DNA of 64,000 nucleotides from Candidatus Pacearchaeota archaeon CG10_big_fil_rev_8_21_14_0_10_34_76 (GCA_002763075.1 PFDB01000010.1:6553-70552), one strand, 5' to 3'. Counted from the stretch's first letter, positions 27,593 to 56,859 are shown. Notes: a model not told the origin generated them from the letters alone. A program made the numbers and translations.

Positions 27593-27744
27593 CCCCTCAT
27601 AGCTCAATGGTTAGAGCACCTGGCTGTAGTCAATATGACTAACGCTGACTATCTCCAAAAGAGAATGGATGAAGCGCGATCAGACCATATTCGCTAGAAT
27701 ATGACAGAACCCGGGTTACCCCAGTTCGATTCTGGGTGAGGGGA
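27593..27744 (+). tRNA. tRNA-Tyr (anticodon GUA) with an 80-nt intron at 37/38
   Basis: Acceptor CCCCTCA/TGAGGGG (the C1-G72 pair typical of archaeal and eukaryotic tRNA-Tyr), D-arm GCTC-AATGGTTA-GAGC, anticodon stem CCTGG/CCGGG, loop CTGTAG|intron 27630-27709|C, T-arm CCCAG-TTCGATT-CTGGG, discriminator A. The intron 3' ACAG pairs with loop CUGU, a 4-bp helix as in a bulge-helix-bulge motif. Confidence 0.85.
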
Positions 27745-31372: not shown

Positions 31373-31603
31373 ATGAAAAAACAAAAATTATATTTATATT
31401 TTGGAATTGGAATCTTTTTAGCTCTAACTTTCTCGTACTTCATTAAAATACCCTTAAACTCTGGATCAAATTACGTCACCACAACATCTATTCTTGGATT
31501 ACTAATGTTTTATAATCCATTCATTTTAGGTGCATACATCGTTATAGCCACAATTCTCATATATAACGGGATAAAAAAACATGACTCTCAAAAATGTGAT
31601 TAA
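31373..31603 (+). CDS. small membrane protein
   Basis: 76 aa, three hydrophobic segments. TATA-like ATTTAAA (31345-31351) lies 21 nt upstream. First gene of the plus-strand redox module. Confidence 0.5.
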   Translation: MKKQKLYLYFGIGIFLALTFSYFIKIPLNSGSNYVTTTSILGLLMFYNPFILGAYIVIATILIYNGIKKHDSQKCD

Positions 31604-32150
31604 CTCTTGGAAGCTCGTTTTTAAGGATAAAAAATATATCTTTCTATCAATCATAGTGGCAATCCTTTTTTATTCTATAAATGTTCTAATAAATGGCTAT
31701 AAGACTATCTTTTCCACTTATAATCTCCTAGGAATTTCAGAAGCAATAACAATATTTTTTGCCCTATCAACAGCCCTTAGGAGTTCAATAGAACTTCACT
31801 CATTTGTTAGTCTTATTGCAACAAGTATCTTGCTTGGGACTCTAGCAAGTTTAATCTTTTATAAGATAAATGTAATGAAAGAGCATAACACCACTAAATC
31901 AGGAGCACTAGCTTCAATAGGAGTGTTTCTAGCCGCTTTGGCCCCAGGATGCGCAGTATGTGGCATTGGTCTCATATCTATTCTTGGATTGAGCGGAATC
32001 ATAGCCACATTGCTTCCATTTGACGGTCTAGAGATATCTATTTTTGCGGTAATTATATTAATTTTTGCAAATTGGAAGATATCAAAAGATTTATTAGTGT
32101 GCAAAATCAATAAAAAATACAACGAGAAGATGAAAGGAGGAATTAAATAA
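31581..32150 (+). CDS. polytopic membrane protein with an intramembrane CxxC (paralog A1)
   Basis: ~5 TM helices. ...LAALAPGCAVCGIGLISILGLSGIIATLLPFDGLEISIF... plus a distal Cys (LLVCKIN). The stop abuts the start of the DsbA-like gene. Confidence 0.7.
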   Translation: MTLKNVINSWKLVFKDKKYIFLSIIVAILFYSINVLINGYKTIFSTYNLLGISEAITIFFALSTALRSSIELHSFVSLIATSILLGTLASLIFYKINVMKEHNTTKSGALASIGVFLAALAPGCAVCGIGLISILGLSGIIATLLPFDGLEISIFAVIILIFANWKISKDLLVCKINKKYNEKMKGGIK

Positions 32151-32852
32151 ATGAGCGAAGAAAACAAAGGAACAATAACGATAAAGAAAGACACCTTATG
32201 GAAATATGCTACATTCAGCTTGCTTGGCATTATAGTTTTAGGAGCAATATTTTTCATATTGCCTGGAAACAGCCCAACAGGAAATGTAGTTGCAGATGGA
32301 GGCCAGCAGATAGTGACTGCTAAAGTCCAGATCACAGAAGCAGACCATATACTTGGAAACCCTAATGCTCCAGTGATAATTGTGGAATATTCAGACTATG
32401 AATGTCCTTTCTGTGAAAGATTCCATAGTGAGACTTTTGGCCAAATAAAAAGCCAGTATATTGATACAGGAAAAGTTGCTTTTATCTATAGGCACTTCCC
32501 ATTAAATTTCCATCCTAATGCACAGAAAGCGGCAGAAGCTTCTGAATGTGCAGCTGAGCAAGAAAAGTTCTGGGAGATGCATGAAATGCTTTTTGAATCA
32601 GGAGTTCAAGGAGGAGTCCAAACATACATTACTTATGCGACGGTACTTGGATTGAACACAGAGCAGTTTAGCGAATGTCTTAATTCAGGAAAGTATGTTT
32701 CAAGAATACAAGCAGATATGACACAAGGACAGAAAGAAAAAATATCTGGAACACCTGGATTCTTTATAGGGAAAGAAGGCAAAGATTACCAACTTGTAAG
32801 TGGAGCACAACCTTTCAATAATTTCAAGCAAGTAATAGACTCAAAGCTTTAA
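32151..32852 (+). CDS. membrane-anchored DsbA-like thiol:disulfide oxidoreductase (paralog B1)
   Basis: N-terminal TM helix, then a thioredoxin fold with active site YSDYECPFCERFH. Paralog of 40168..40914. Confidence 0.85.
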   Translation: MSEENKGTITIKKDTLWKYATFSLLGIIVLGAIFFILPGNSPTGNVVADGGQQIVTAKVQITEADHILGNPNAPVIIVEYSDYECPFCERFHSETFGQIKSQYIDTGKVAFIYRHFPLNFHPNAQKAAEASECAAEQEKFWEMHEMLFESGVQGGVQTYITYATVLGLNTEQFSECLNSGKYVSRIQADMTQGQKEKISGTPGFFIGKEGKDYQLVSGAQPFNNFKQVIDSKL

Positions 32853-32936
32853 ACATAATTTATTTTTTTATTTTTTATTCCTTATCCTTGGGAAACAAAT
32901 ATAAAGGAGAAGAAATTCATTAAAAATGTCTTAAAA

Positions 32937-33440
32937 ATGGCAAAACCAAAATGTGAAATATGTGACAGGGAATTCAAAAATCAGGAAGCTTTAGAGTTTC
33001 ACAATCAAGCAAAGCATCCTTCAAGTTCTCCACAAAAGTCAACAAAATCAATTAAGGGCTCTAAGAAAGCAATTGCATGGGCAGTTGGCCTTATTATAAT
33101 AGTTGGAATAATTGCTTTGATCATTTTTTCATCATCAGGCGCAGAAGGAAAATATGATACCTTCTCTCAATGTATCGCAAATAGTGGAGCAGTAATGTAC
33201 GGAGCTTATTGGTGTCCCCATTGTCAAGACCAAAAAGAAATGTTTGGAAAAAGTTGGGAACACGTAAACGATATCGAATGCTCTCTTCCTAACAGAGCTG
33301 GACAAACAGCAGAATGTAATGAGGCAGGCATTCAGTCTTATCCAACATGGGAATTTGCAGACGGAAGTAGGCAGACAGGCGTATTGTCATTCCAGCAACT
33401 CAGCCAATTAACTGGCTGTCCAGTTGTACAGGATGAATAA
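32937..33440 (+). CDS. C2H2 zinc finger - TM helix - thioredoxin-like (CPHC) ectodomain protein
   Basis: KCEICDREFKNQEALEFHNQAKH fits C-X2-C-X12-H-X4-H with the conserved F and L. It is followed by one TM helix (AIAWAVGLIIIVGIIALIIF) and MYGAYWCPHCQDQKEMFG ... SYPTW, which resembles the Trx-like domain fused to cyanobacterial VKOR. Confidence 0.8.
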   Translation: MAKPKCEICDREFKNQEALEFHNQAKHPSSSPQKSTKSIKGSKKAIAWAVGLIIIVGIIALIIFSSSGAEGKYDTFSQCIANSGAVMYGAYWCPHCQDQKEMFGKSWEHVNDIECSLPNRAGQTAECNEAGIQSYPTWEFADGSRQTGVLSFQQLSQLTGCPVVQDE

Positions 33441-33632
33441 ATTCTTTTAACATGAGGTTTTGTGCTTGATGAAATAGGTATTAGAAAAAGTTTTCAGGGC
33501 ATTTCAGAACCTCTTTGATTTTATCCTTGTACTTTCTTTCCAATTTATCTGACTGCTTCTTAGCCTCCAAAAATTTAGCTATTTGATTAAATCCATTTAC
33601 TCGGTAGCAAGCTGAAAAATTAGGTTCTTGAT

Positions 33633-34184
33633 TTAGTTTCTTCTACTCATAAACCACAATACAATTATTCCTAAAAATGCAGTAAATGCCATCATTGGAA
33701 TTGTAATATATCCAAATTCTGCAAAGAATGATTCAGAACACGACGCACTATATCCCAACGCAGAACAAGGAAGGTCAACAGGATTCTCAGATGTCTGGTT
33801 ATAATAATGGAATCCAGCTATCAAAAGGCCAATCACTGAAAGCATTACAAGATAAGGCATTATCCTTCTTCTTTCTTTCCTTATTAATGCCATTCCTGCT
33901 ATGAAAACCATGGGATACATAAATATTCTTTGATACCAGCATAATGTACAAGGGGCAAACTTCAATAACTCAGAAAAAATCAAGCTTCCAACCATTGCTG
34001 TCAAGGATATAATAAACATAAACAATAGTCCTCTTTTTCCAAAGAATTTCCATAATTTATCTCCAAATCTCTTTCCAGAAGCCTTGAAAATTACCCAATC
34101 TAACAGATAAGCAACTATTACAACTTGTGCTATCAATGTGAGCACTGCAAAGATTTTTATCACACTTTGATCCCAAAATACCAT
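33633..34184 (-). CDS. DsbB-family disulfide bond formation protein (BdbC type)
   Basis: PCTLCWYQRIFMYP active-site motif, a second Cys pair (CSALGYSASC), and four or five TM helices. Confidence 0.85.
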   Translation of the reverse strand: MVFWDQSVIKIFAVLTLIAQVVIVAYLLDWVIFKASGKRFGDKLWKFFGKRGLLFMFIISLTAMVGSLIFSELLKFAPCTLCWYQRIFMYPMVFIAGMALIRKERRRIMPYLVMLSVIGLLIAGFHYYNQTSENPVDLPCSALGYSASCSESFFAEFGYITIPMMAFTAFLGIIVLWFMSRRN

Positions 34185-38046: not shown

Positions 38047-38493
38047 CTATTTCTTCAGCATCAGCAAACTTCCAAGCAAAACCAACACAACTAAAACCTG
38101 TATCTCGATACCTTGAAAAGGAAGGCTTGCAAAACTAAAAGATATTCCTATGAAAGACAATATCAAAGGAAGCAAACCAGTAATACACAATGGACAAACA
38201 CCCACAACAAGTCCTCCAATAGCTCCAACTCCAGCAACAGCACTTTCTTTTTTACACTCCTTTCTTTGCTTATATCTCATAAATGCAAGCACAGAAGTCA
38301 TAGCAACGAGAACTCCAATCATTAAAGTTAATCCCAGAGAAATCCCAAGCTTCACCCAATCAACACTTTTTGCATAAATCACAATAAGCGGAATAGTATA
38401 ATAAAACCCACTAAGGATAATATTCAAAATCAGATAAAAAATAAAAATTCCTACAACCCAGAATACATACGGCTTTCTGAACAATTCTTTCAT
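38047..38493 (-). CDS. polytopic membrane protein with an intramembrane CxxC (short paralog)
   Basis: ...GAIGGLVVGVCPLCITGLLPLILSFIGISFSFASLPFQGIEIQVL... has the same G-x-CxxC ... LPF-G-(L/I)E(I) layout as A1, A2 and A3. Confidence 0.65.
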   Translation of the reverse strand: MKELFRKPYVFWVVGIFIFYLILNIILSGFYYTIPLIVIYAKSVDWVKLGISLGLTLMIGVLVAMTSVLAFMRYKQRKECKKESAVAGVGAIGGLVVGVCPLCITGLLPLILSFIGISFSFASLPFQGIEIQVLVVLVLLGSLLMLKK

Positions 38494-38514: not shown

Positions 38515-39051
38515 TCATTCTTTATATATTATCTCTTGAGTTATATCAATAAATTCAAGGCATAACTTTTCTATTTTATCCAATTGCTGCTCATCCCTGA
38601 CCTTAAGATCAACTCCATAAGTATAATCCTCTCTGAGTTCAATTACACTATTTTCATGATTCATCTGCTCGTCTTCATATTTCATAAAATCTAGAATTTC
38701 TTTTTTGATATCTATTATTCCCTGCTCTTGCAGAGAGTCTATTAAAGTTATTGTGCAAGTCTGATTTTTCGATTCGTATCCAAATTTTGCTGTAATAGAC
38801 AAAAAACAGTGATATAATGAATAAAATCCTACACCCATAGCTAAATCCGAGAAATCATTCTCTCTTAAAAGTCTAAACCCTTTAAGAAAATGTCTGGCCT
38901 TATCCACGTGCTGAAATGCAAGGTTTTTGTCAGGGTTTATTTTAAGCAATCCTCTGTGACGAGGTTTTTTGTTTTGTTTTTCAGATTCATTGAGTTCCCT
39001 CTCTGCTTTTCTCAAACACCATTCAATTTTTTTAGAAACTTGTGAATCCAT
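38515..39051 (-). CDS. HEPN domain protein
   Basis: The helical pattern HVDKARHFLKGFRLLRENDFSDLAMGVGFYSLYHCFLSITAKFG is typical of HEPN. It overlaps the upstream MNT gene by 20 nt. Confidence 0.6.
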   Translation of the reverse strand: MDSQVSKKIEWCLRKAERELNESEKQNKKPRHRGLLKINPDKNLAFQHVDKARHFLKGFRLLRENDFSDLAMGVGFYSLYHCFLSITAKFGYESKNQTCTITLIDSLQEQGIIDIKKEILDFMKYEDEQMNHENSVIELREDYTYGVDLKVRDEQQLDKIEKLCLEFIDITQEIIYKE

Positions 39052-39622
39052 TCATTATCTCCATATAATTATCATAGCCACATAAAATAATTCCTGTTCT
39101 AATTATCTCCAATATTGCTTTATTATTACTTCTTAAATTTCTTATAAAATCATGTTTTGTTGATTTGATTGCATGAATCTTTTTTGGCAAAACGGCCTGT
39201 ATTTCCTCCAACTTGACATTTACTTCCTTAAATTCTCCTTCCTTAAGGATAATCATAATATCTATATCTTTGGCCTGTGCGTAATTTCTGCTGGCAGATC
39301 CATAAAATAAAATTATCCTTCCCTTTTTACATAAATTTTTGAATTCATTTCTCCATCGATCATGTTTCCCTGCCTCATTTACAAACGCAAATCCCATTAG
39401 TTTCTGTGCCAACTCGTCATATATATCGATTTTATAGATAATTGATTTTCCAATTTGTTTACTTGCCAGAAGGCCAGCTTTTTCGAGCCTTTTCAAGATT
39501 TTCATTGCACCAACCTGAGTTATTTCCAATTTTTTGCTAAGGGAATTTGCATTATAAAAATTAGTAAAATCTTTATAAATTATAATTAAAGCTTCCTGCT
39601 CTTTTCTTGTTAACTCTATCAT
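39032..39622 (-). CDS. wHTH plus minimal nucleotidyltransferase (MNT) protein
   Basis: wHTH (LSKKLEITQVGAMKILKRLEKAGLL) followed by ILFYGSASRNYAQAKDIDIMIIL (GS..DxD). Confidence 0.75.
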   Translation of the reverse strand: MIELTRKEQEALIIIYKDFTNFYNANSLSKKLEITQVGAMKILKRLEKAGLLASKQIGKSIIYKIDIYDELAQKLMGFAFVNEAGKHDRWRNEFKNLCKKGRIILFYGSASRNYAQAKDIDIMIILKEGEFKEVNVKLEEIQAVLPKKIHAIKSTKHDFIRNLRSNNKAILEIIRTGIILCGYDNYMEIMNGFTSF

Positions 39623-39696: not shown

Positions 39697-40089
39697 TCAC
39701 TTAACATTCAACTTTCCAAAACCCATTCCCATAGTGCATGAGAAAGTGTAACTTCCTTTCTTAAGTGCAGGCAATTCCAAAACATCTGATTCTGATTGAA
39801 GATATTTAGAATATTTTTTCCCATCAAAATTAAAAACAACTGACCTTAAACATCCTCTAACTGATGAATCAGCACTCAACGAAATTGGCTGTCCAGCTTT
39901 CACTTCAACATCTTCATAATTGAAACCATCCTGACTAAGAACAACTTTCTGAGTCTGACCATCCAGAGCGTTTTCACCTTCATTGATAACATTTCCAGTC
40001 ACTCCTTTGCTTCCTGCATTAACAAATACGAAACCTCCAACTAAGATAATCATTACTCCTATGCCCATTAAAATCATTGAATTTTTCAT
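39697..40089 (-). CDS. membrane-anchored cupredoxin-like protein
   Basis: N-terminal TM helix. The C-terminal GSYTFSCTMGMGFGKLNV plus upstream Cys is the Cupredoxin_1-type copper-site pattern. Confidence 0.7.
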   Translation of the reverse strand: MKNSMILMGIGVMIILVGGFVFVNAGSKGVTGNVINEGENALDGQTQKVVLSQDGFNYEDVEVKAGQPISLSADSSVRGCLRSVVFNFDGKKYSKYLQSESDVLELPALKKGSYTFSCTMGMGFGKLNVK

Positions 40090-40110: not shown

Positions 40111-40137
40111 TTTTTAAGCTCTTCGATGAGACTAGTC
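40111..40137 (-). promoter_or_regulatory. TATA plus GACTAGTC operator module (cupredoxin promoter)
   Basis: Minus sense: GACTAGTC (40130-40137) - 12 nt - TTAAAAA (40111-40117) - 21 nt - ATG(40089). Confidence 0.6.
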
Positions 40138-40167: not shown

Positions 40168-40914
40168 TTAGGCTAGTTCAGCGTCAATGATTTGCTTAAA
40201 TACAGAGTAGGGTTGTGCTCCCGAAAGGGGCTTTCCATTGATGAAAAATCCTGGAGTGCCCTGCACACCATAACTGCTCCCATCATTAAGGTCTTTTTGC
40301 ACCTCGCTTCTAAACTTCCCAGAATCAAGACAAGTATCTATATCATATCCAACATCATTTGCCCATTTCTTCAGATCCTCATTTGTGAAACTAACTGTGC
40401 TTCTAACTGGACCAGTATTTGCATCTCCTCCATCAAGGATATTTCCTTCTTGGAAAATTTTGTCATGCATCTTGAAATATGCTTCATCACCACCTTGTTC
40501 CATCACACAATTTGCTGCTTCTGCAGCAGGTGTTGCAGCAGAATGGATGCTATCAAGAGGAAAATCTCTGTAAACAAACCTTACTTTACCTGTATCTATA
40601 TATTCTGATTTTAGTAATGGAAATGTTTCTGTCCAGAACTTTCTACAGAATGGACACTGATAATCAGAAAACTCTATTATTTCAACAGGAGCATTCTCCT
40701 CCCCTAAAACAGGATCGTCATCTGCGCTTACTTCAACTCGAGAAGGTTGAGTAGGCAAGGTTGGAGCATTATTCTCACCAGTGTTCTCCCTTAGGCCTCC
40801 ATCATTTCCTGTAAAAAAGAATATGGCTCCTATAACCAATACAGCCAAAAGCAAAAGTGTGCTATATTTCCATAATGCATCTTTTCTTATAGTTATTGTT
40901 TTTTCTTCACTCAT
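40168..40914 (-). CDS. membrane-anchored DsbA-like thiol:disulfide oxidoreductase (paralog B2)
   Basis: FSDYQCPFCRKFW active site. The N-terminus MSEEKTITIRKDALWKY matches MSEENKGTITIKKDTLWKY of B1. Confidence 0.85.
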   Translation of the reverse strand: MSEEKTITIRKDALWKYSTLLLLAVLVIGAIFFFTGNDGGLRENTGENNAPTLPTQPSRVEVSADDDPVLGEENAPVEIIEFSDYQCPFCRKFWTETFPLLKSEYIDTGKVRFVYRDFPLDSIHSAATPAAEAANCVMEQGGDEAYFKMHDKIFQEGNILDGGDANTGPVRSTVSFTNEDLKKWANDVGYDIDTCLDSGKFRSEVQKDLNDGSSYGVQGTPGFFINGKPLSGAQPYSVFKQIIDAELA

Positions 40915-41483
40915 TTTAACCTCCTTTCACTTTTGTAAAAATTAATCTCACAAGTACCTGCTGAACTCATATCCTCGCTTATTTTCATAATTGAGAAAAA
41001 GAGAATTCCTATAGCTAAAAGTGAGATCTCAAGCCCCCCAAGAGGAAGAAAGACTAAGAAAGCAGAACTCAATCCAAATAAAGATAATGATCCAACTCCG
41101 CATGCAGCGCATCCTGGAGCAATCATTCCCAAAAAAATTCCTCCAACCACAAAAACCCCTGATTTCCCAGAGGTTGTTTTTATGATTAATGTTTTATAAG
41201 TTATCAAACTAAAAAGCATACCAAATAAAACACTAATAATGAGCAAGCTCATGTAAGAGCTAAGTTTTAATGTGGCTCCAAAACCAATTACTAAACTAAA
41301 AAATAAGTTGATTGTTTTTAAAAATCCAAACTCTGGGTAAAAAGAAAAAAGAATTTTCCAGTTGCTTATCACAACATTCACTAAATAAAAAAAAACAGCC
41401 AGGGTTGTTGTTAATAATGGGTATTTCCAATTCATAAAAACTTCTTTCCATGTCTTAATTATTTTATTTATCTTCATTTTCAC
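40911..41483 (-). CDS. polytopic membrane protein with an intramembrane CxxC (paralog A2)
   Basis: ...LGMIAPGCAACGVGSLSLFGLSSAFLVFLPLGGLEISLL... plus a distal Cys (GTCEINF). 4-nt overlaps with both neighbouring genes. Confidence 0.7.
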   Translation of the reverse strand: MKMKINKIIKTWKEVFMNWKYPLLTTTLAVFFYLVNVVISNWKILFSFYPEFGFLKTINLFFSLVIGFGATLKLSSYMSLLIISVLFGMLFSLITYKTLIIKTTSGKSGVFVVGGIFLGMIAPGCAACGVGSLSLFGLSSAFLVFLPLGGLEISLLAIGILFFSIMKISEDMSSAGTCEINFYKSERRLK

Positions 41484-42112
41484 CTGGATGTGTACTCTAT
41501 TAAGATTTCATCTTTATCTTTCATGACGTAATTCTCAAATTCGTTGTTTTCAACACCATTGACATGCATCTTTAATTCTCCATTATCTGTACAGTACTCG
41601 AATATACATTTTGAACTGAATTGTTTGTCCCAAACATAAAAGAAATACCCCAAGGTGAGAGTTTCAGGCTTAGAACTTGGATTATTATTTTCTAAATGAA
41701 TAGTTCCATCTGTTTCATGAGTATGAGTTGGAGACATTCTCATTCCGCTTAAGGAAGTATCAACAATCTTGCCAACGCTCAACCCTATGTCTGTAGAGAT
41801 AGGAATTGTTTCCCCATCAACTTTGATTGTTATTCTTGGATGCCAGTGCACCGCTCCAGAAGGAATAGTGATTTCCCTGCCCCCGAGATCTACATTAAGG
41901 TCTTTCACATTTCTTTCAGGGATTAGTGCTATTACTCCAAAAATTATTAACCCAATGACTACAATAAAAATTGTCAAGTTCCTCATTTTTTTAACAGGCA
42001 ATCTTTTTTTATCCTTAGGCAAAATTTCAGAATGCTTTGCATTATTGTGCGCAATTAAACCCTCAGTGTTCTTGAATACCCTACCACAGACCCCACATGT
42101 TTTCTTCACCAT
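41480..42112 (-). CDS. C2H2 zinc finger - TM helix - His-rich ectodomain protein
   Basis: TCGVCGRVFKNTEGLIAHNNAKH (C-X2-C-X12-H-X4-H), one TM helix, then an ectodomain with HWHP and SPTHTHETDGTIH. Confidence 0.75.
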   Translation of the reverse strand: MVKKTCGVCGRVFKNTEGLIAHNNAKHSEILPKDKKRLPVKKMRNLTIFIVVIGLIIFGVIALIPERNVKDLNVDLGGREITIPSGAVHWHPRITIKVDGETIPISTDIGLSVGKIVDTSLSGMRMSPTHTHETDGTIHLENNNPSSKPETLTLGYFFYVWDKQFSSKCIFEYCTDNGELKMHVNGVENNEFENYVMKDKDEILIEYTSR

Positions 42113-42223: not shown

Positions 42224-42721
42224 CTAGAATTTTAAGAATACCTCTAGGGTTTTTCCTTTCTGAATCCTTTTTACAAGCCCTCTTCTTTCAAGCTCTTGAA
42301 GAACATAACTTAATTTAGCCTTAGACATATCAGTTCTTATTCTCAATGTTGATTGTGTGATTCCAGGTTGTTCTCTTATTGCCTTCACAATTTTTTGTTC
42401 GAATGGATCAAGAGCCTTTAATAAAATAGAAAACTTCATATCTTCAATTTTTTCATCCCTCTCTTTTTCAAGTCTTTCAAGGATTGCTTTTTCAGTTTTA
42501 TTAAAAAAGAGAAGATAAAATCCAAGTGCTATTATAAAGGAAAATATCCCTATCGCTATATGTGAAACAGACAAACCCCTTTCAAGTTCAAGACATCCTG
42601 GCTGATTAAAACACCCCATCTCATTTGATTGCTCTGATAAATTCAAGGAATAATAAACAAACATCCCCCCAACAATCAATCCAATAACAATTAAAAGCAC
42701 ACCCAGTTTTTTATTTTCCAT
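42224..42721 (-). CDS. membrane-anchored wHTH regulator with an extracytoplasmic Cys pair (sensor paralog 1)
   Basis: TM1, loop NEMGCFNQPGCLE, TM2, then a cytoplasmic wHTH (ITQSTLRIRTDMSKAKLSYVLQELERRGLVKR). Confidence 0.75.
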   Translation of the reverse strand: MENKKLGVLLIVIGLIVGGMFVYYSLNLSEQSNEMGCFNQPGCLELERGLSVSHIAIGIFSFIIALGFYLLFFNKTEKAILERLEKERDEKIEDMKFSILLKALDPFEQKIVKAIREQPGITQSTLRIRTDMSKAKLSYVLQELERRGLVKRIQKGKTLEVFLKF

Positions 42722-42764: not shown

Positions 42765-43028
42765 TTATTTCATCTTATTGTATATTGTAGCAAACAGCCA
42801 TCCAACAATCCATGCCAATACTACTATCTCAACAAGTCCAATAATCCCGCTTACTATTGAAACATTTGGGTTTGTTATCTTGCTAATATCCAATCCATGG
42901 AAAAGATATCCAAATAAACTCATTGTAGCTTCTGGAATAACAATTATCAACACGACGCACACAATAAATACTATTCCTGAAACAATTGCTAGCGAATTCG
43001 CCACATTTTTTGTATTTAATTTATCCAT
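42765..43028 (-). CDS. small two-TM membrane protein
   Basis: Start set to the ATG preceded by AAAGGAGGTGAGAAA (SD, 7-nt spacer). The listed MKGGEK extension is read-through of the SD. Confidence 0.6.
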   Translation of the reverse strand: MDKLNTKNVANSLAIVSGIVFIVCVVLIIVIPEATMSLFGYLFHGLDISKITNPNVSIVSGIIGLVEIVVLAWIVGWLFATIYNKMK

Positions 43029-43060
43029 TTTCTCACCTCCTTTCATAACTAAACATCAGA

Positions 43061-43579
43061 TTACTTTAATCTTATCTTGCAAGCTCCTTCCACAGATTTC
43101 CCTGTCAGATATATAGATACCATCAAAATAAAAATTCCAAGAACCTGTATCTCTAGTCCTCTAAAAGGAAAATACATCAATGCTAAAGGCATTCCAACAA
43201 GCCCAAAGAGGAATGCTCCACATGTTGGGCATCCAACTCCAAAAGCAGCAATTCCCGAGCCAATAAATCCAACTATTCCCTTTCCTTCCATTTTTTTATA
43301 ATTCTCAAACTTAAAGAAAATCATTGACATCAAAATTCCAGATAATACAGCAGTCACTATAATACTCGCCACACTAAATGTTATAAAAGCAGTCCCAGAC
43401 ATCATCACAGATATCCAGATGCTGTTATCAGCCACCTTAGCAACTAAAAAATAATACAAAATACCAAAAATCGCAATTCCTACTAACGAAGCTATTAACT
43501 TATACTTTCTACTACTCAACACTTCCCCAACAATAACAAATGTGTTGCCACATTCATCTTTTAGATTCATCCCAAACAC
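43061..43579 (-). CDS. polytopic membrane protein with an intramembrane CxxC (paralog A3)
   Basis: ...GSGIAAFGVGCPTCGAFLFGLVGMPLALMYFPFRGLEIQVL... plus a distal Cys (GACKIRL). Confidence 0.7.
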   Translation of the reverse strand: MFGMNLKDECGNTFVIVGEVLSSRKYKLIASLVGIAIFGILYYFLVAKVADNSIWISVMMSGTAFITFSVASIIVTAVLSGILMSMIFFKFENYKKMEGKGIVGFIGSGIAAFGVGCPTCGAFLFGLVGMPLALMYFPFRGLEIQVLGIFILMVSIYLTGKSVEGACKIRLK

Positions 43580-43785
43580 TCCGCATATATATTAGGATGA
43601 TGGCTCATATGTTCTCTCCAGCTTTCTTCGGTGTATCCTGGTTGAACATTACATTTTTCATTCCCAGAACTTCCAGCATCACTAATTGCATAGATTATCC
43701 CAGGAAATAAGGTAAGCAACAATAACCCGATCGAGACAATCCCTAAAACTATGTATAATATTATTTTTTTATTCATTAATGGCAT
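43567..43785 (-). CDS. small membrane-anchored protein with a Cys/His motif
   Basis: 72 aa: TM helix followed by CNVQPGYTEESWREHMSHHPNIYAEC. Confidence 0.5.
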   Translation of the reverse strand: MPLMNKKIILYIVLGIVSIGLLLLTLFPGIIYAISDAGSSGNEKCNVQPGYTEESWREHMSHHPNIYAECLG

Positions 43786-44255
43786 TTTCCTCCTTTCAAT
43801 ACGTTATTCATTTTTCTCCTATGATTTACCATAACAATTATTCCAAGAACATTAGATAATATTCCAATAGTCAATATCTCTGACTGATATTGAGCAAGAA
43901 AAACAGCCAACCCAGATAAACCTATAATTGGAATCACATTAAGAAGAAAATGACTACAACACGCAACCATACTTCCCGCAGAAAGAGTTCCAGTTCCTGC
44001 AACAGTTGCATTCACTCCGGCACTATGCCTTATTGATGTAAAAAGCCCGACTTGTATCCCAAATCCCCCAGCAAGAGGAATGATAAAATACCACAAGCTC
44101 CTCAAACTAAAAAATGCAAAAGCAACTCCTTGGAAAATGCTTATAACGCCTAAGTAAAATAGAACAAGTCCAATTCCTGCTAACAATCCATACAAAATTG
44201 CATTACTTTTTCTACTATTTTTTACATATCTCATGTTATTCCATACAGCATTCAA
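43776..44255 (-). CDS. polytopic membrane protein with a vicinal CC (divergent member of the CxxC family)
   Basis: ...GTLSAGSMVACCSHFLLNVIPIIGLSGLAVFLAQYQSEIL... is colinear with the CxxC..GLSG..LP..E segment of A1-A3. Confidence 0.6.
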   Translation of the reverse strand: MNAVWNNMRYVKNSRKSNAILYGLLAGIGLVLFYLGVISIFQGVAFAFFSLRSLWYFIIPLAGGFGIQVGLFTSIRHSAGVNATVAGTGTLSAGSMVACCSHFLLNVIPIIGLSGLAVFLAQYQSEILTIGILSNVLGIIVMVNHRRKMNNVLKGGKCH

Positions 44256-44728: not shown

Positions 44729-45265
44729 TTATATTATTACAAACTGGATTAATAATGAGGAGATTATAAGCAACGCAAATGTCACAATAAGTCCTTGGAA
44801 TGGAATTCCTTTTCCATTTCTCTTTTCTTTTATCTTCCTACTCAATGAAGGAGAGACAAATACTATTACTCCTCCAAATAAACTACTTATCAAAGAGTAG
44901 TCAATAGCATAAGTTATTCCATATTCTCCTAAGAATGGTAAATACAATGGCCCTAAAGCACTAAATATTGGCATCAATGGCAATACAGTAAGAACAAACA
45001 CGCCCACAATTATCAACGTCTTCTGAAATGGAATATATCTTTTTTTTACAATTCTAGCAAACCACATCCCCATAGACATAGCAAAAGCCCCGATGAAAAG
45101 TGCTACGATTACCTTGCTGACTCCAAGCCAAACAGCTCCTGCAGCAGCAGCCCCTGCTCCAATAGTGCAAAGAGGACAATGCGCATATACACTTTCGGCC
45201 AGCATCAGAATAAATACAGGCATAGCAAACAGCCAAACCATCCACTTGTTGAATATTTTTTTCAT
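44729..45265 (-). CDS. polytopic membrane protein with an N-terminal HCPLC motif
   Basis: Signal-like helix, then AHCPLCTIGAGAAAAGAVWLG and four further TM helices. First gene of a seven-gene minus-strand operon. Confidence 0.65.
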   Translation of the reverse strand: MKKIFNKWMVWLFAMPVFILMLAESVYAHCPLCTIGAGAAAAGAVWLGVSKVIVALFIGAFAMSMGMWFARIVKKRYIPFQKTLIIVGVFVLTVLPLMPIFSALGPLYLPFLGEYGITYAIDYSLISSLFGGVIVFVSPSLSRKIKEKRNGKGIPFQGLIVTFALLIISSLLIQFVII

Positions 45266-46257: not shown

Positions 46258-46740
46258 TTAAATCCTCATCCACTCTCTAAAAGTCCCGTCGTTTTGAACA
46301 GCATATATAACGAAATCTCCTGATTTTGTTCCAGGCATTCCAGGGCTTCCATTCGGCATTCCAGGCATTGCAATTCCCTTTATGTCAGGTTTTTCTGTAA
46401 GAAGTTTCTCTACAGCTTCTAAAGGTATATGTCCCTCAATAAAATAATTTCCAATTATCGTTGTATGACAACTTTCCATTTGCGAAGGTATCTCATATTT
46501 TGCCTTTAAGGTTGAAAGACTTTCAAGATTGACAACTTCCACATCAGAGTTCCCCTTTCTTTGGAAATAATTAACAAAGACTCCACAACATCCACAGCTC
46601 CCCGTCTTGTATATTGTCATCTCGCCATCATATTCGCCTAACGAAGGATATCCGCTTGCTTTATTACTTCCAAATACAATAAACAAAGCAACCACTATTA
46701 TGATTACTCCTACTCCAACTATTATTGTTTTCTTTTTCAT
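46258..46740 (-). CDS. DUF411 (CopG-like) metal-binding protein, membrane-anchored
   Basis: SCGCCGVFVNYF, ESCHTT and IEGHIP motifs, with a Met/Pro-rich GMPNGSPGMPG segment. Confidence 0.75.
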   Translation of the reverse strand: MKKKTIIVGVGVIIIVVALFIVFGSNKASGYPSLGEYDGEMTIYKTGSCGCCGVFVNYFQRKGNSDVEVVNLESLSTLKAKYEIPSQMESCHTTIIGNYFIEGHIPLEAVEKLLTEKPDIKGIAMPGMPNGSPGMPGTKSGDFVIYAVQNDGTFREWMRI

Positions 46741-47054: not shown

Positions 47055-47741
47055 TTAGCATCCTCCGACCATTGCTCCTCCAGAAGAGCTTTGTCCTTTC
47101 TCTATCCCTCTGTATAGATTAGATGCAAGATTGATATAATCAGTGCTATCTATTCCATTAGCTTCTAACACTTGTGCTTTCTGCTCATGAATCCCTGGGA
47201 AGAATAGAACTTTCCACTTCCCTAATTCCCTAAGTATATCTGCATCGCTCATTTCAGGATTGTTTATCAAAAGATACTTTGCAAGACCCCTCATTGCATA
47301 GCTATGTGCACATCCACAAGCCCTCTCCCCATTTGAGAAGATAATTGATTCAGCACCACAACAATACTCACAAGAGATTGATCCTGCAATCATTATATAT
47401 CTCTCAAGTTGTTCAGCATTCAACTGCAAGTCTTCGTATTCAGAAAGCTTTGCAATTGTAGCATCCGCAAGCCTTGGATTATTTGGAGATACATCATCGT
47501 AGCTAATCCCCATACTTGCTCCATATACTGCAGGGATTCCCTCAGGTATTATTTCTGAAGCAGAAACTGTCCCAACACCTGTAGCAAGTCCTGTAGGCCC
47601 AATAGATGAATAAACCTTTCCTGTATTAAATACAATTACTAATGCAAGAATAGCTATTATTCCTATTTGGACATAAAGCTCTGTCTTTCCGGAGCTGGTC
47701 GATCCTCCTTTCATTTCATTCTCACTTTCGTGTTTTTCCAT
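47055..47741 (-). CDS. membrane-anchored Cys-rich protein ending in MVGGC
   Basis: TM helix, then an ectodomain with SCEYCCGAESIIFSNGERACGCAHSYAMRGL and C-terminal GGAMVGGC. Confidence 0.65.
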   Translation of the reverse strand: MEKHESENEMKGGSTSSGKTELYVQIGIIAILALVIVFNTGKVYSSIGPTGLATGVGTVSASEIIPEGIPAVYGASMGISYDDVSPNNPRLADATIAKLSEYEDLQLNAEQLERYIMIAGSISCEYCCGAESIIFSNGERACGCAHSYAMRGLAKYLLINNPEMSDADILRELGKWKVLFFPGIHEQKAQVLEANGIDSTDYINLASNLYRGIEKGQSSSGGAMVGGC

Positions 47742-56128: not shown

Positions 56129-56812
56129 TTATCCAAAAACACCACTTCTAGGTCCGAATACCATAAACCAAGCGGTAACAACTGTAAGCACGAATGTCAA
56201 GAAAATAGTCCAGAAATGATCTTCCTTCTTCTTTCTTGTCTCAGAGCGCATTTCTTTGAATATCATATAATTCAATGAGAATAATATAATTGCAGAGATT
56301 AAGAAAACAATCACTGCGCTTGGTATTAAATTATCATTAAACAACATAAAAGCAGTCATAGCCCCCATAAGTCCTCCCATAAAGCCAGCCATCATTCCTT
56401 CCATGAACCCCATCACACCACAGCACTTTCCATTCCATATCCCAAGTACAATTCCAACCCCCATTCCAAAAACGCTTCCAACAAACATACCATTAGTTGA
56501 AGCTACAAAAAATCCAGCCAAAAACCCAGCAATCATTCCTGTTGTCATTCCAACCATCATCCCCGACATACATGGCATTTCCCCATAAGCCCTAACTTGT
56601 CTTATAGCAGGAACAAGGAAAGCATAGCTCAATGCAGCAAAAAACATAAAGAATCCTTGCTTAGACATGAAATCTGGTATTTCGCTAAATCTAAAGAAGT
56701 ACAATATTCCCAAAATAATGAAGGATGTCAGCAATGAATAGAAAATTGTCTTGATTAACTCTCCCTCTACTCTATCCCCATGTTTCACTTCTTTCAAAAA
56801 TTCCCTAAACAT
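56129..56812 (-). CDS. polytopic Gly/Met-rich membrane protein with a CC motif
   Basis: GEMPCMSGMMVGMTTGMIAGF ... WNGKCCGVMGFMEGMMAGFMGGLMGAM across six or seven TM helices. Confidence 0.6.
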   Translation of the reverse strand: MFREFLKEVKHGDRVEGELIKTIFYSLLTSFIILGILYFFRFSEIPDFMSKQGFFMFFAALSYAFLVPAIRQVRAYGEMPCMSGMMVGMTTGMIAGFLAGFFVASTNGMFVGSVFGMGVGIVLGIWNGKCCGVMGFMEGMMAGFMGGLMGAMTAFMLFNDNLIPSAVIVFLISAIILFSLNYMIFKEMRSETRKKKEDHFWTIFLTFVLTVVTAWFMVFGPRSGVFG

Positions 56813-56859
56813 GTTTTCTCCTTGTTTTTTTAATATTTAAGTTCTTTGGTGAATCAAAA

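Follow-up and report, generated by a model that had tools for sequence, protein, structure and literature searches.

The DNA analysed here, a 64,000-nucleotide window from Candidatus Pacearchaeota archaeon CG10_big_fil_rev_8_21_14_0_10_34_76 (GCA_002763075.1 PFDB01000010.1:6553-70552), raises the question of which membrane proteins exchange thiols and disulfides with the exported thioredoxin-fold proteins of an archaeon in which no VKOR is found. A first-pass annotation had noted at 31373-34184 bacterial-style disulfide-bond machinery comprising a small membrane protein, a polytopic CxxC membrane protein (A1, first member of what is here called the A family), a membrane-anchored DsbA-like protein, a thioredoxin (Trx)-like protein of the type normally fused to VKOR and a convergent DsbB gene, and had proposed that the Trx-like protein must be oxidized either by DsbB or by A1. 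Open reading frame calls and Pfam and NCBIfam matches bear out both the genes and the presence of the machinery (Table 1). The locus holds two separate extracytoplasmic thiol modules, one made up of DsbB and the stand-alone Trx-like protein and the other of A and the DsbA-like protein. In the explanation that we consider best overall, and to which we would give about an even chance of being right, the first module would be the disulfide generator and A would act as a transmembrane cysteine relay for exported cysteine-containing proteins, mainly in a copper-stress island. To our knowledge only a few membrane families, DsbB, VKOR and DsbD/CcdA, feed or drain the exported thiol-disulfide network; a conserved and unannotated CxxC partner of DsbA-like proteins in DPANN archaea and in bacteria of the Candidate Phyla Radiation (CPR) would add a new component to it.

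In the Trx-like protein the ectodomain, residues 81-164, matches the Trx domain of the Synechococcus VKOR, and the match takes in the WCPHC active site, the YPTW cis-proline region and the extra cysteine pair, with WCPHCQDQKE identical to the solved protein. The protein is built of a cytoplasmic C2H2 finger (residues 5-29 give weak zf-C2H2-type matches), one transmembrane (TM) helix and the extracytoplasmic Trx-like domain, and it lacks the covalent fusion to a VKOR core that defines VKOR-Trx. No match to VKOR (PF07884) was found in the window or in the organism's own 914-kb assembly, which does carry DsbB; that assembly is 88% complete and the absence is therefore provisional. The detachment of the domain from VKOR, as the first-pass annotation described it, is thus real at this locus but is no peculiarity of this genome, since a stand-alone VKOR-type Trx is encoded in 178 of 301 genomes of the phylum, mostly in open reading frames of 115-170 residues. 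The DsbB protein, correctly assigned to the BdbC type, scores above the curated threshold of PF02600 (63.7 bits, cut-off 22.1) and slightly under the 124-bit cut-off of the BdbC-type model NF002849 (116 bits, 1.2e-33). Its residues C79, C82, R86, C140 and C149 are invariant among 10 homologs from the phylum, so that the CxxC, the arginine and the second cysteine pair are all kept. An N-terminal extension of about 45 residues precedes the region matched by the profile and contains an extra hydrophobic segment, which, if it forms a TM helix, would bring the number of such helices to five.

Five profile searches were compared by their positives over the same 301 phylum genomes, of which 138 contain VKOR and 37 DsbB. 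In at least nine other genomes from six families (G218, G084, G138, G043, G115, G086, G157, G280 and G079) the genes for Trx and DsbB lie next to each other and point the same way, with Trx upstream of DsbB in eight, and the same adjacency is directly visible in loci L031, L035, L038, L039 and L042. The Trx gene abuts a stand-alone VKOR gene in at least 12 other genomes, both counts being lower bounds taken from the best 150 Trx places. About 20 of the VKOR matches listed sit in open frames of 270-330 residues, which suggests that fused VKOR-Trx forms occur too. As Trx and DsbB lie side by side in nine other genomes that carry DsbB, the latter appears the likelier of the two candidate oxidants of the Trx-like protein, and the first-pass proposal is favoured in this half only, the partner of A being the DsbA-like protein rather than the Trx. 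The Trx-like protein would then be dedicated to the quinone-type generator that a given genome happens to carry, and here DsbB and the membrane-anchored Trx-like protein would constitute the disulfide generator, with DsbB in the place held by VKOR in many relatives. The Dsb parts taken singly are ordinary members of their families; the pairing of DsbB with a VKOR-type Trx is a new variant. A published phylogeny of VKOR and DsbB reports archaeal VKORs without the C-terminal Trx-like domain and does not describe DsbB paired with a Trx of this type (PMC4555120). The pairing indicates that the two disulfide generators are interchangeable against the same Trx-like partner.

The second module rests on a membrane family that is undescribed in the libraries searched. 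A1 matches no Pfam or NCBIfam family, and a lenient Pfam scan (E up to 5) of 70 diverse A members gave nothing consistent. A HMMER search of 1.8 billion cluster representatives returned 626 relatives at E<1e-3. Among 127 full-length representatives C124, C127 and P146 never vary (100%), and conservation is 99% for G149 and 98% for E151, G86 and G136; helix 4 opens with a nearly invariant P-x-x-G-x-E motif. The cysteine of the tail is invariant in a 70-sequence alignment, and in about half of the cluster representatives a second tail cysteine completes a further CxxC. An AlphaFold2 (AF2) model of A1 (pLDDT 80.5, pTM 0.74) is all-helical, with the CxxC past the middle of helix 108-134 and E151 opening the last helix. 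Lysine and arginine frequencies sum to 12.0 over the N-terminus (4.0), loop 95-107 (3.5) and the tail (4.5), as against 2.7 over the remaining two loops (2.2 and 0.5). Because of this bias A is predicted to have four TM helices with both termini in the cytoplasm; the tail cysteine would then lie inside, and the CxxC would sit in helix 3, in its outer half. The DsbA-like proteins have an N-in anchor of their own, and every A fusion described below has an extra TM helix between the A tail and the ectodomain, in agreement with this topology. Neither of the two findings that the first-pass annotation had named as speaking against thiol exchange between A and DsbA, a match to a known unrelated transporter family and a CxxC at the cytoplasmic face, was obtained.

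The AF2 model of A has no fold match in the PDB, Foldseek and VIA-align returning only generic helical bundles (best Z 8.4, CotVW), and no claim of a new fold is made. Matches in the ESM Atlas fall only in unnamed clusters from CPR bacteria and Methanobacteriota, and one search found no longer homologs, in itself weak evidence. Against the CcdA profile of the phylum hhalign gives a probability of 0.2%, there is no match to PF02683, and the two cysteines lie on one helix as a CxxC rather than singly on separate helices in P-C motifs as in CcdA and DsbD_TM. Within the window the family has four members. A1 and A2 are 41% identical, and A3 (hhalign probability 97.7%, E 2.4e-12) and A4 are, by their profile scores, true paralogs. 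Two further candidates, A5 (43776-44255) and A6 (44729-45265), were set aside, as kinship could not be demonstrated (hhalign 2% and 0.4%), so that four members remain and not six.

The TAA stop codon of A1 runs straight into the ATG of DsbA-like 1 in the same frame, and A2 and DsbA-like 2 overlap by 4 nucleotides; such junctions suggest translational coupling. The recurrence of the pair at 40168-41483, already noticed in the first-pass annotation, proved to be one instance of a general pattern once the neighbourhoods of A homologs were surveyed. Of 29 loci of other phylum genomes (1.5-kb flanks), 22 have a DsbA-like gene next to A in the same direction and nine have a VKOR-type Trx nearby. Of 76 loci of named assemblies (6-kb flanks), a set that takes in one Undinarchaeales and two Patescibacteria assemblies, 65 have a DsbA-like gene on the same strand; in 63 loci it is the immediate neighbour among the labelled genes, and in 57 the distance is within 150 nucleotides. 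In this larger set A precedes DsbA in 48 loci and follows it in 11, and most of the A loci without a DsbA-like gene stop at a contig edge. A sample of Patescibacteria contained A in 10 of 181 genomes, with a DsbA-like neighbour in six CPR loci. The adjacency of A and DsbA is far beyond chance, and the conserved partner of A is the DsbA-like protein, not the Trx. Both DsbA-like proteins of the window match PF13462 (Thioredoxin_4; Table 1) and are matched end to end by PF01323. They bear a lysine-rich, N-in anchor of their own, and the CPFC active site and the GTP of the cis-proline loop are conserved across 70 homologs. The nearest solved structures of DsbA-like 1 are 3F4R (1.5e-23), the DsbA chain 4PWP and the BdbD structure 3EU3 (1.8e-18); DsbA-like 2 shows at most 71% identity to the partners of A in other genomes.

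Fusions tie A to exported domains in two ways. In three cluster representatives (P0040, P0048 and P0099) A, a TM helix and a DsbA domain form one protein, and all three retain the methionine of the DsbA gene and, as K-G-G or E-R-R, the translation of its ribosome-binding site GAAAGGAGG. From these forms it would follow that the covalent link is topologically tolerated and little beyond that. The stronger evidence comes from four Patescibacteria genomes (loci L168, L173, L174 and L175), where A makes up the N-terminal part of proteins of 417-611 residues; behind it come a tail that carries either one or two CxxC motifs, an additional TM helix and finally an ectodomain rich in cysteine. The exported Cys-rich ‘CCG’ protein of the window is homologous to the C-terminal domain of the L175 fusion (BLASTP 2.9e-14), and the CCG domain so defined, with an invariant CC, C-x-H and a C-terminal GGC, forms a protein of its own in the window and at seven related loci and is attached C-terminally to A in the four CPR genomes. 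It has no Pfam, NCBIfam or PDB match, and its AF2 model reaches a pLDDT of 76. By adjacency or by fusion A is thus tied to at least two different exported Cys-motif domains. In L173 and L174 the A fusions begin with a cytoplasmic Cys-rich segment resembling a zinc ribbon (CEECGF ... CEAWC ... H), reminiscent of the N-terminal C2H2 fingers in the Trx and His-rich proteins of the window. In a further CPR locus, L170, the DsbA-like profile and the His-rich ectodomain both find a match in a single open frame of 399 residues, which suggests a fusion of these two domains.

Over the 301 phylum genomes A is found in 63. VKOR or DsbB is present in 56 of these 63, against 165 of the 301 overall; the corresponding figures are 39 and 157 for CcdA and 59 and 214 for Thioredoxin_4, the last count including the unpublished genome G243, on which no claim depends. 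As A co-occurs with VKOR or DsbB, and often with CcdA, it is no substitute for the disulfide generators or for CcdA, and the view of A as a stand-in for VKOR or DsbB has to be given up. Most DsbA-like proteins of the phylum do without A, which serves a particular subset of them. CcdA was found neither in the organism's own assembly (88% complete) nor in any of the 13 genomes of its own family; should the organism have a reductive route, A is a candidate for it.

The A-DsbA pairs occur in two genomic contexts. In the first, of ‘housekeeping’ character, the small protein, A and DsbA, at times followed by Trx or DsbB, lie beside genes for a matrixin-like peptidase or ribosomal proteins; in the second, a copper island, genes for a membrane-anchored winged helix-turn-helix regulator, A, DsbA, a His-rich ectodomain, a Met/Cys-rich polytopic protein and a cupredoxin-like protein are followed by an A3-type paralog. 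Within the window A1 has the housekeeping context and A2 that of the copper island; a clean sorting of all loci by identity into an A1 type and an A2 type did not hold. Genes for CopA, ArsR, MsrB, SOD and Suf proteins recur near A loci. Among the 76 loci the regulator family is found in 28, mostly upstream and on the same strand, and the cupredoxin-like family in 16, with a cysteine and a C-x-M-x-M motif conserved. The His-rich protein recurs beside A-DsbA pairs; in 15 homologs five histidines are invariant and conservation of a C-x4-C pair reaches 93%. Copper ligand-like residues are conserved in these island neighbours of A, and a palindrome, GACTAGTC, lies at 40130-40137, just upstream of the cupredoxin-like gene.

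In the relay reading, A would link the cytoplasm to exported Cys-motif proteins, namely the DsbA-like partner and, in other genomes, the CCG domain. As a reductant or proof-reader after the manner of DsbD-DsbG or ScsB-ScsC, it would keep both the DsbA-like protein and the Cys/Met copper sites of neighbouring envelope proteins in the reduced state. By analogy with those systems we favour a reducing direction over an oxidizing or metal-carrying role, because of the cytoplasmic cysteine, the copper-stress setting, the Cys/Met copper sites of the neighbours that would need reduction and the presence of a separate generator. The copper-island setting and the invariant cytoplasmic cysteine point to a cross-membrane cysteine relay rather than to an oxidase of the DsbB type. 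In its boldest form the proposal would place the A family beside DsbB, VKOR and DsbD/CcdA as a fourth class of membrane thiol oxidoreductases, of independent descent, moving redox equivalents between the tail cysteine and the CxxC of the outer leaflet, with a dedicated DsbA-like partner in ultra-small archaea and bacteria and active together with the copper-stress response; this we advance tentatively and regard as rather doubtful. Several points weigh against the relay. Thiol exchange by A, like all of its redox chemistry including the direction, is something that we infer from sequence, and its topology is drawn from charge bias rather than from a dedicated predictor. In a simple four-helix model the outer-leaflet CxxC would lie roughly 20 Å from the tail cysteine, with no evident path between them, and the short paralog A3 has no tail at all. 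The A-DsbA fusions may be simple stop-codon losses, and a palindrome search found no copper operator ahead of the A1 operon. The solved kin of the DsbA-like protein include the disulfide oxidases BdbD, Wolbachia DsbA (3F4R) and Corynebacterium diphtheriae DsbA (4PWP), and structure entries named as copper or metal resistance proteins match it more weakly than the oxidases do. As to the generator, Trx and DsbB are convergent in this genome, and co-transcription is therefore not implied.

These oxidase matches, BdbD among them, are also what would be expected if A were a third kind of DsbA re-oxidase, an analogue of DsbB and VKOR that passes electrons from its CxxC to a membrane acceptor and forms with its partner a DsbL-DsbI-like oxidase pair for copper-island proteins. 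The tight and conserved pairing fits such a role, as do the four helices, the cytoplasmic ends and the CxxC near the outer face that A shares in general terms with DsbB and VKOR, and the read-through forms have the layout of 4+1 TM helices plus Trx fold known from VKOR-Trx. However, one conserved cysteine pair of A is predicted outside the cytoplasm whereas DsbB and VKOR each use two, and hhalign detects no similarity to the phylum's own profiles of DsbB (probability 0.9%) or VKOR (0.4%). A generator is already present in 56 of the 63 A-bearing genomes, the invariant cytoplasmic cysteine would be of no obvious use to an oxidase, and a fusion to a Cys-rich, probably metal-binding ectodomain, as in CPR, would be unusual for one, so that we consider a re-oxidase unlikely. 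To a similar degree it seems improbable that A carries a soft metal, Cu(I) and perhaps Hg(II), in the manner of MerT or MerC, with the DsbA-like protein acting as MerP and the metal passing by way of the CxxC and the tail cysteine to CopZ and CopA. The cysteine pair in a Gly-rich TM helix and the cytoplasmic cysteine are indeed as in MerT and MerC, the island supplies CopA, CopZ, cupredoxin-like, DUF411, Met-rich and His-rich proteins, and the CC...CxH ectodomain fused to A in CPR would suit a metal. An alignment with MerC even falls in register on K-x-G ... GCAxC, with 43% identity over 42 columns, although the hhalign probability is 5% for the single sequence and 8% for a 20-sequence profile (0.2% for MerT of Tn21), and the likeness is one of motif only. 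None of the 70 A members matched a Mer family of Pfam even at E up to 5. The neighbour families that recur in the 76 loci with 6-kb flanks include no merA, merP or merR, the smaller loci (the 29 with 1.5-kb flanks and the CPR set) having been screened solely for thiol and copper families and more distant relatives lying outside the survey. The DsbA fold of the partner is no known metallochaperone fold, and copper imported merely for re-export by CopA would bring no clear benefit. It might finally be supposed that A and the DsbA-like protein adjoin merely as members of one copper-stress regulon, A being either a substrate on which its neighbour acts or a membrane protein unrelated to it. The island does hold many unrelated Cys-rich membrane and exported proteins, and the co-evolution of A with its partner in a mirror-tree comparison is weak (r = 0.29, confounded by relatedness). 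Against this stand an adjacency kept in both gene orders, in two contexts of which one is housekeeping rather than the copper island, and in two domains of life, the junctions suggestive of translational coupling and the restriction of the invariant side chains of A to the cysteines and the proline, glycine and glutamate around them; we regard mere membership of a regulon as very unlikely. The A family would also give a testable handle on how exported cysteines are managed under copper stress in these cells.

Table 1. Genes of the window that bear on the two thiol modules and the copper island.
Feature	Position	Strand	Remarks
Small membrane protein ‘s’, 2 TM	31373-31603	+	76 residues; 23-nucleotide overlap with start of A1; open reading frame call
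A1, membrane family with 4 TM	31581-32150	+	189 residues; APGCAVCG; C124 and C127 in TM3, C174 in cytoplasmic tail
DsbA-like 1, TM-anchored	32151-32852	+	233 residues; CPFC; Thioredoxin_4 1.4e-33, DSBA 2.9e-17
Zinc finger-TM-Trx protein	32937-33440	+	167 residues; WCPHC, SYPTW; phmmer against 3KP8/3KP9 E 1.2e-23
DsbB, BdbC type	33633-34184	-	183 residues; PCTLCWYQR; PF02600 3.3e-17; convergent with Trx gene
A3, short A paralog	38047-38493	-	CPLC; no cytoplasmic tail; within ArsR-CopZ-CopA gene string
Cupredoxin-like protein, TM-anchored	39697-40089	-	Downstream of DsbA-like 2; Cupredoxin_1 1e-07
DsbA-like 2, TM-anchored	40168-40914	-	CPFC; Thioredoxin_4 9.8e-37
A2, paralog of A1	40911-41483	-	APGCAACG; A profile E 1.3e-73; 41% identity to A1
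‘H’, C2H2 zinc finger, one TM helix, His-rich ectodomain	41480-42112	-	Upstream of A2
‘R’, membrane-anchored winged-helix regulator	42224-42721	-	Pfam DUF7343 3.6e-11 and MarR-type matches
A4, A paralog	43061-43579	-	GCPTCG; tail cysteine; A profile E 2.8e-16
DUF411 protein, exported Cys protein of island	46258-46740	-	5.7e-25; CGCCG motif
Exported Cys-rich ‘CCG’ protein	47055-47741	-	228 residues; CC-G ... C-x-H ... GGC end
Met-very-rich polytopic membrane protein (family f16)	56132-56836	-	Motifs C-M-x-x-M-M and K-C-C-G-I-M-G

Several further features of these genes may be recorded. The small protein encoded ahead of A1 has no significant Pfam match and no cysteine conserved among its homologs, which lie directly upstream of A in 14 of the 76 loci. 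Many A proteins end in ...MKGG... or ...ERR..., the translation of the Shine-Dalgarno-like GAAAGGAGG of the downstream DsbA gene (32120-32150 in the window; loci L049-L124), and MKGG also stands near the N-termini of other island proteins, for example those of 42765-43046 and 47055-47741. The DUF411 protein belongs to what we take to be the family of the copper-resistance protein CopG. The family of the Met-rich protein is present in nine related loci and in relatives lies between the His-rich and cupredoxin-like proteins; the protein probably binds or conducts copper. The cupredoxin-like gene and A3, whose counterparts are close together in relatives, are separated here by two genes (196 and 178 residues) at 38515-39622 on the minus strand, which by eye resemble a pair of the nucleotidyltransferase/HEPN type. 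Four of these families, namely A, the His-rich domain, the CCG domain and the Met-rich membrane protein, lack annotation and are at present labelled ‘hypothetical’ in genomes.

The source organism is a DPANN archaeon of groundwater. Its relatives carry the names Pacearchaeota, Woesearchaeota or Nanoarchaeota, and the stretch is contained in groundwater metagenome runs, the run listing naming no RNA dataset. A tRNA match of 152 nucleotides at 27593-27744 (plus strand), a length that suffices for an intron, speaks for an archaeal origin; ARAGORN made no call there.

The Trx-like ectodomain is clearly homologous to that of the Synechococcus VKOR-Trx (3KP9, 3KP8 and 4NV2), but here it is unfused, has its own TM anchor behind a cytoplasmic C2H2 finger and has DsbB as the adjacent membrane enzyme. 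With the BdbC-BdbD system of Bacillus subtilis the locus shares a BdbC-type DsbB and Thioredoxin_4 DsbA-like proteins that match BdbD; in this phylum, however, it is usually a VKOR-type Trx gene that adjoins DsbB, and the DsbA-like proteins have A as their partner. MerC and MerT (Tn21, R100) have, like A, a cysteine pair in a Gly-rich TM helix, a hairpin and then a cytoplasmic cysteine, and GCAAC is literally common to A and MerC, whereas the similarity of A is statistically unsupported, no mer genes are found among the recurrent neighbour families of the 6-kb flanks and its partner has the DsbA fold rather than the HMA fold of MerP. The Scs system and DsbC are associated with copper tolerance, and DsbD-DsbG and ScsB-ScsC are copper-linked reductive pairs that provide precedents for the role favoured here. 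DsbD/CcdA and ScsB are membrane conduits by which proteins of the DsbC, DsbG and ScsC type are maintained in reduced form. In common with DsbD/CcdA and ScsB-ScsC, A is a membrane protein with intramembrane cysteines encoded beside an exported Trx-fold partner, with a link to copper stress and with fusions to exported domains. The two designs nevertheless differ, in that CcdA has two P-C half-sites on helices 1 and 4 whereas A has four helices, one CxxC on a single helix and an extra cysteine in the cytoplasm.

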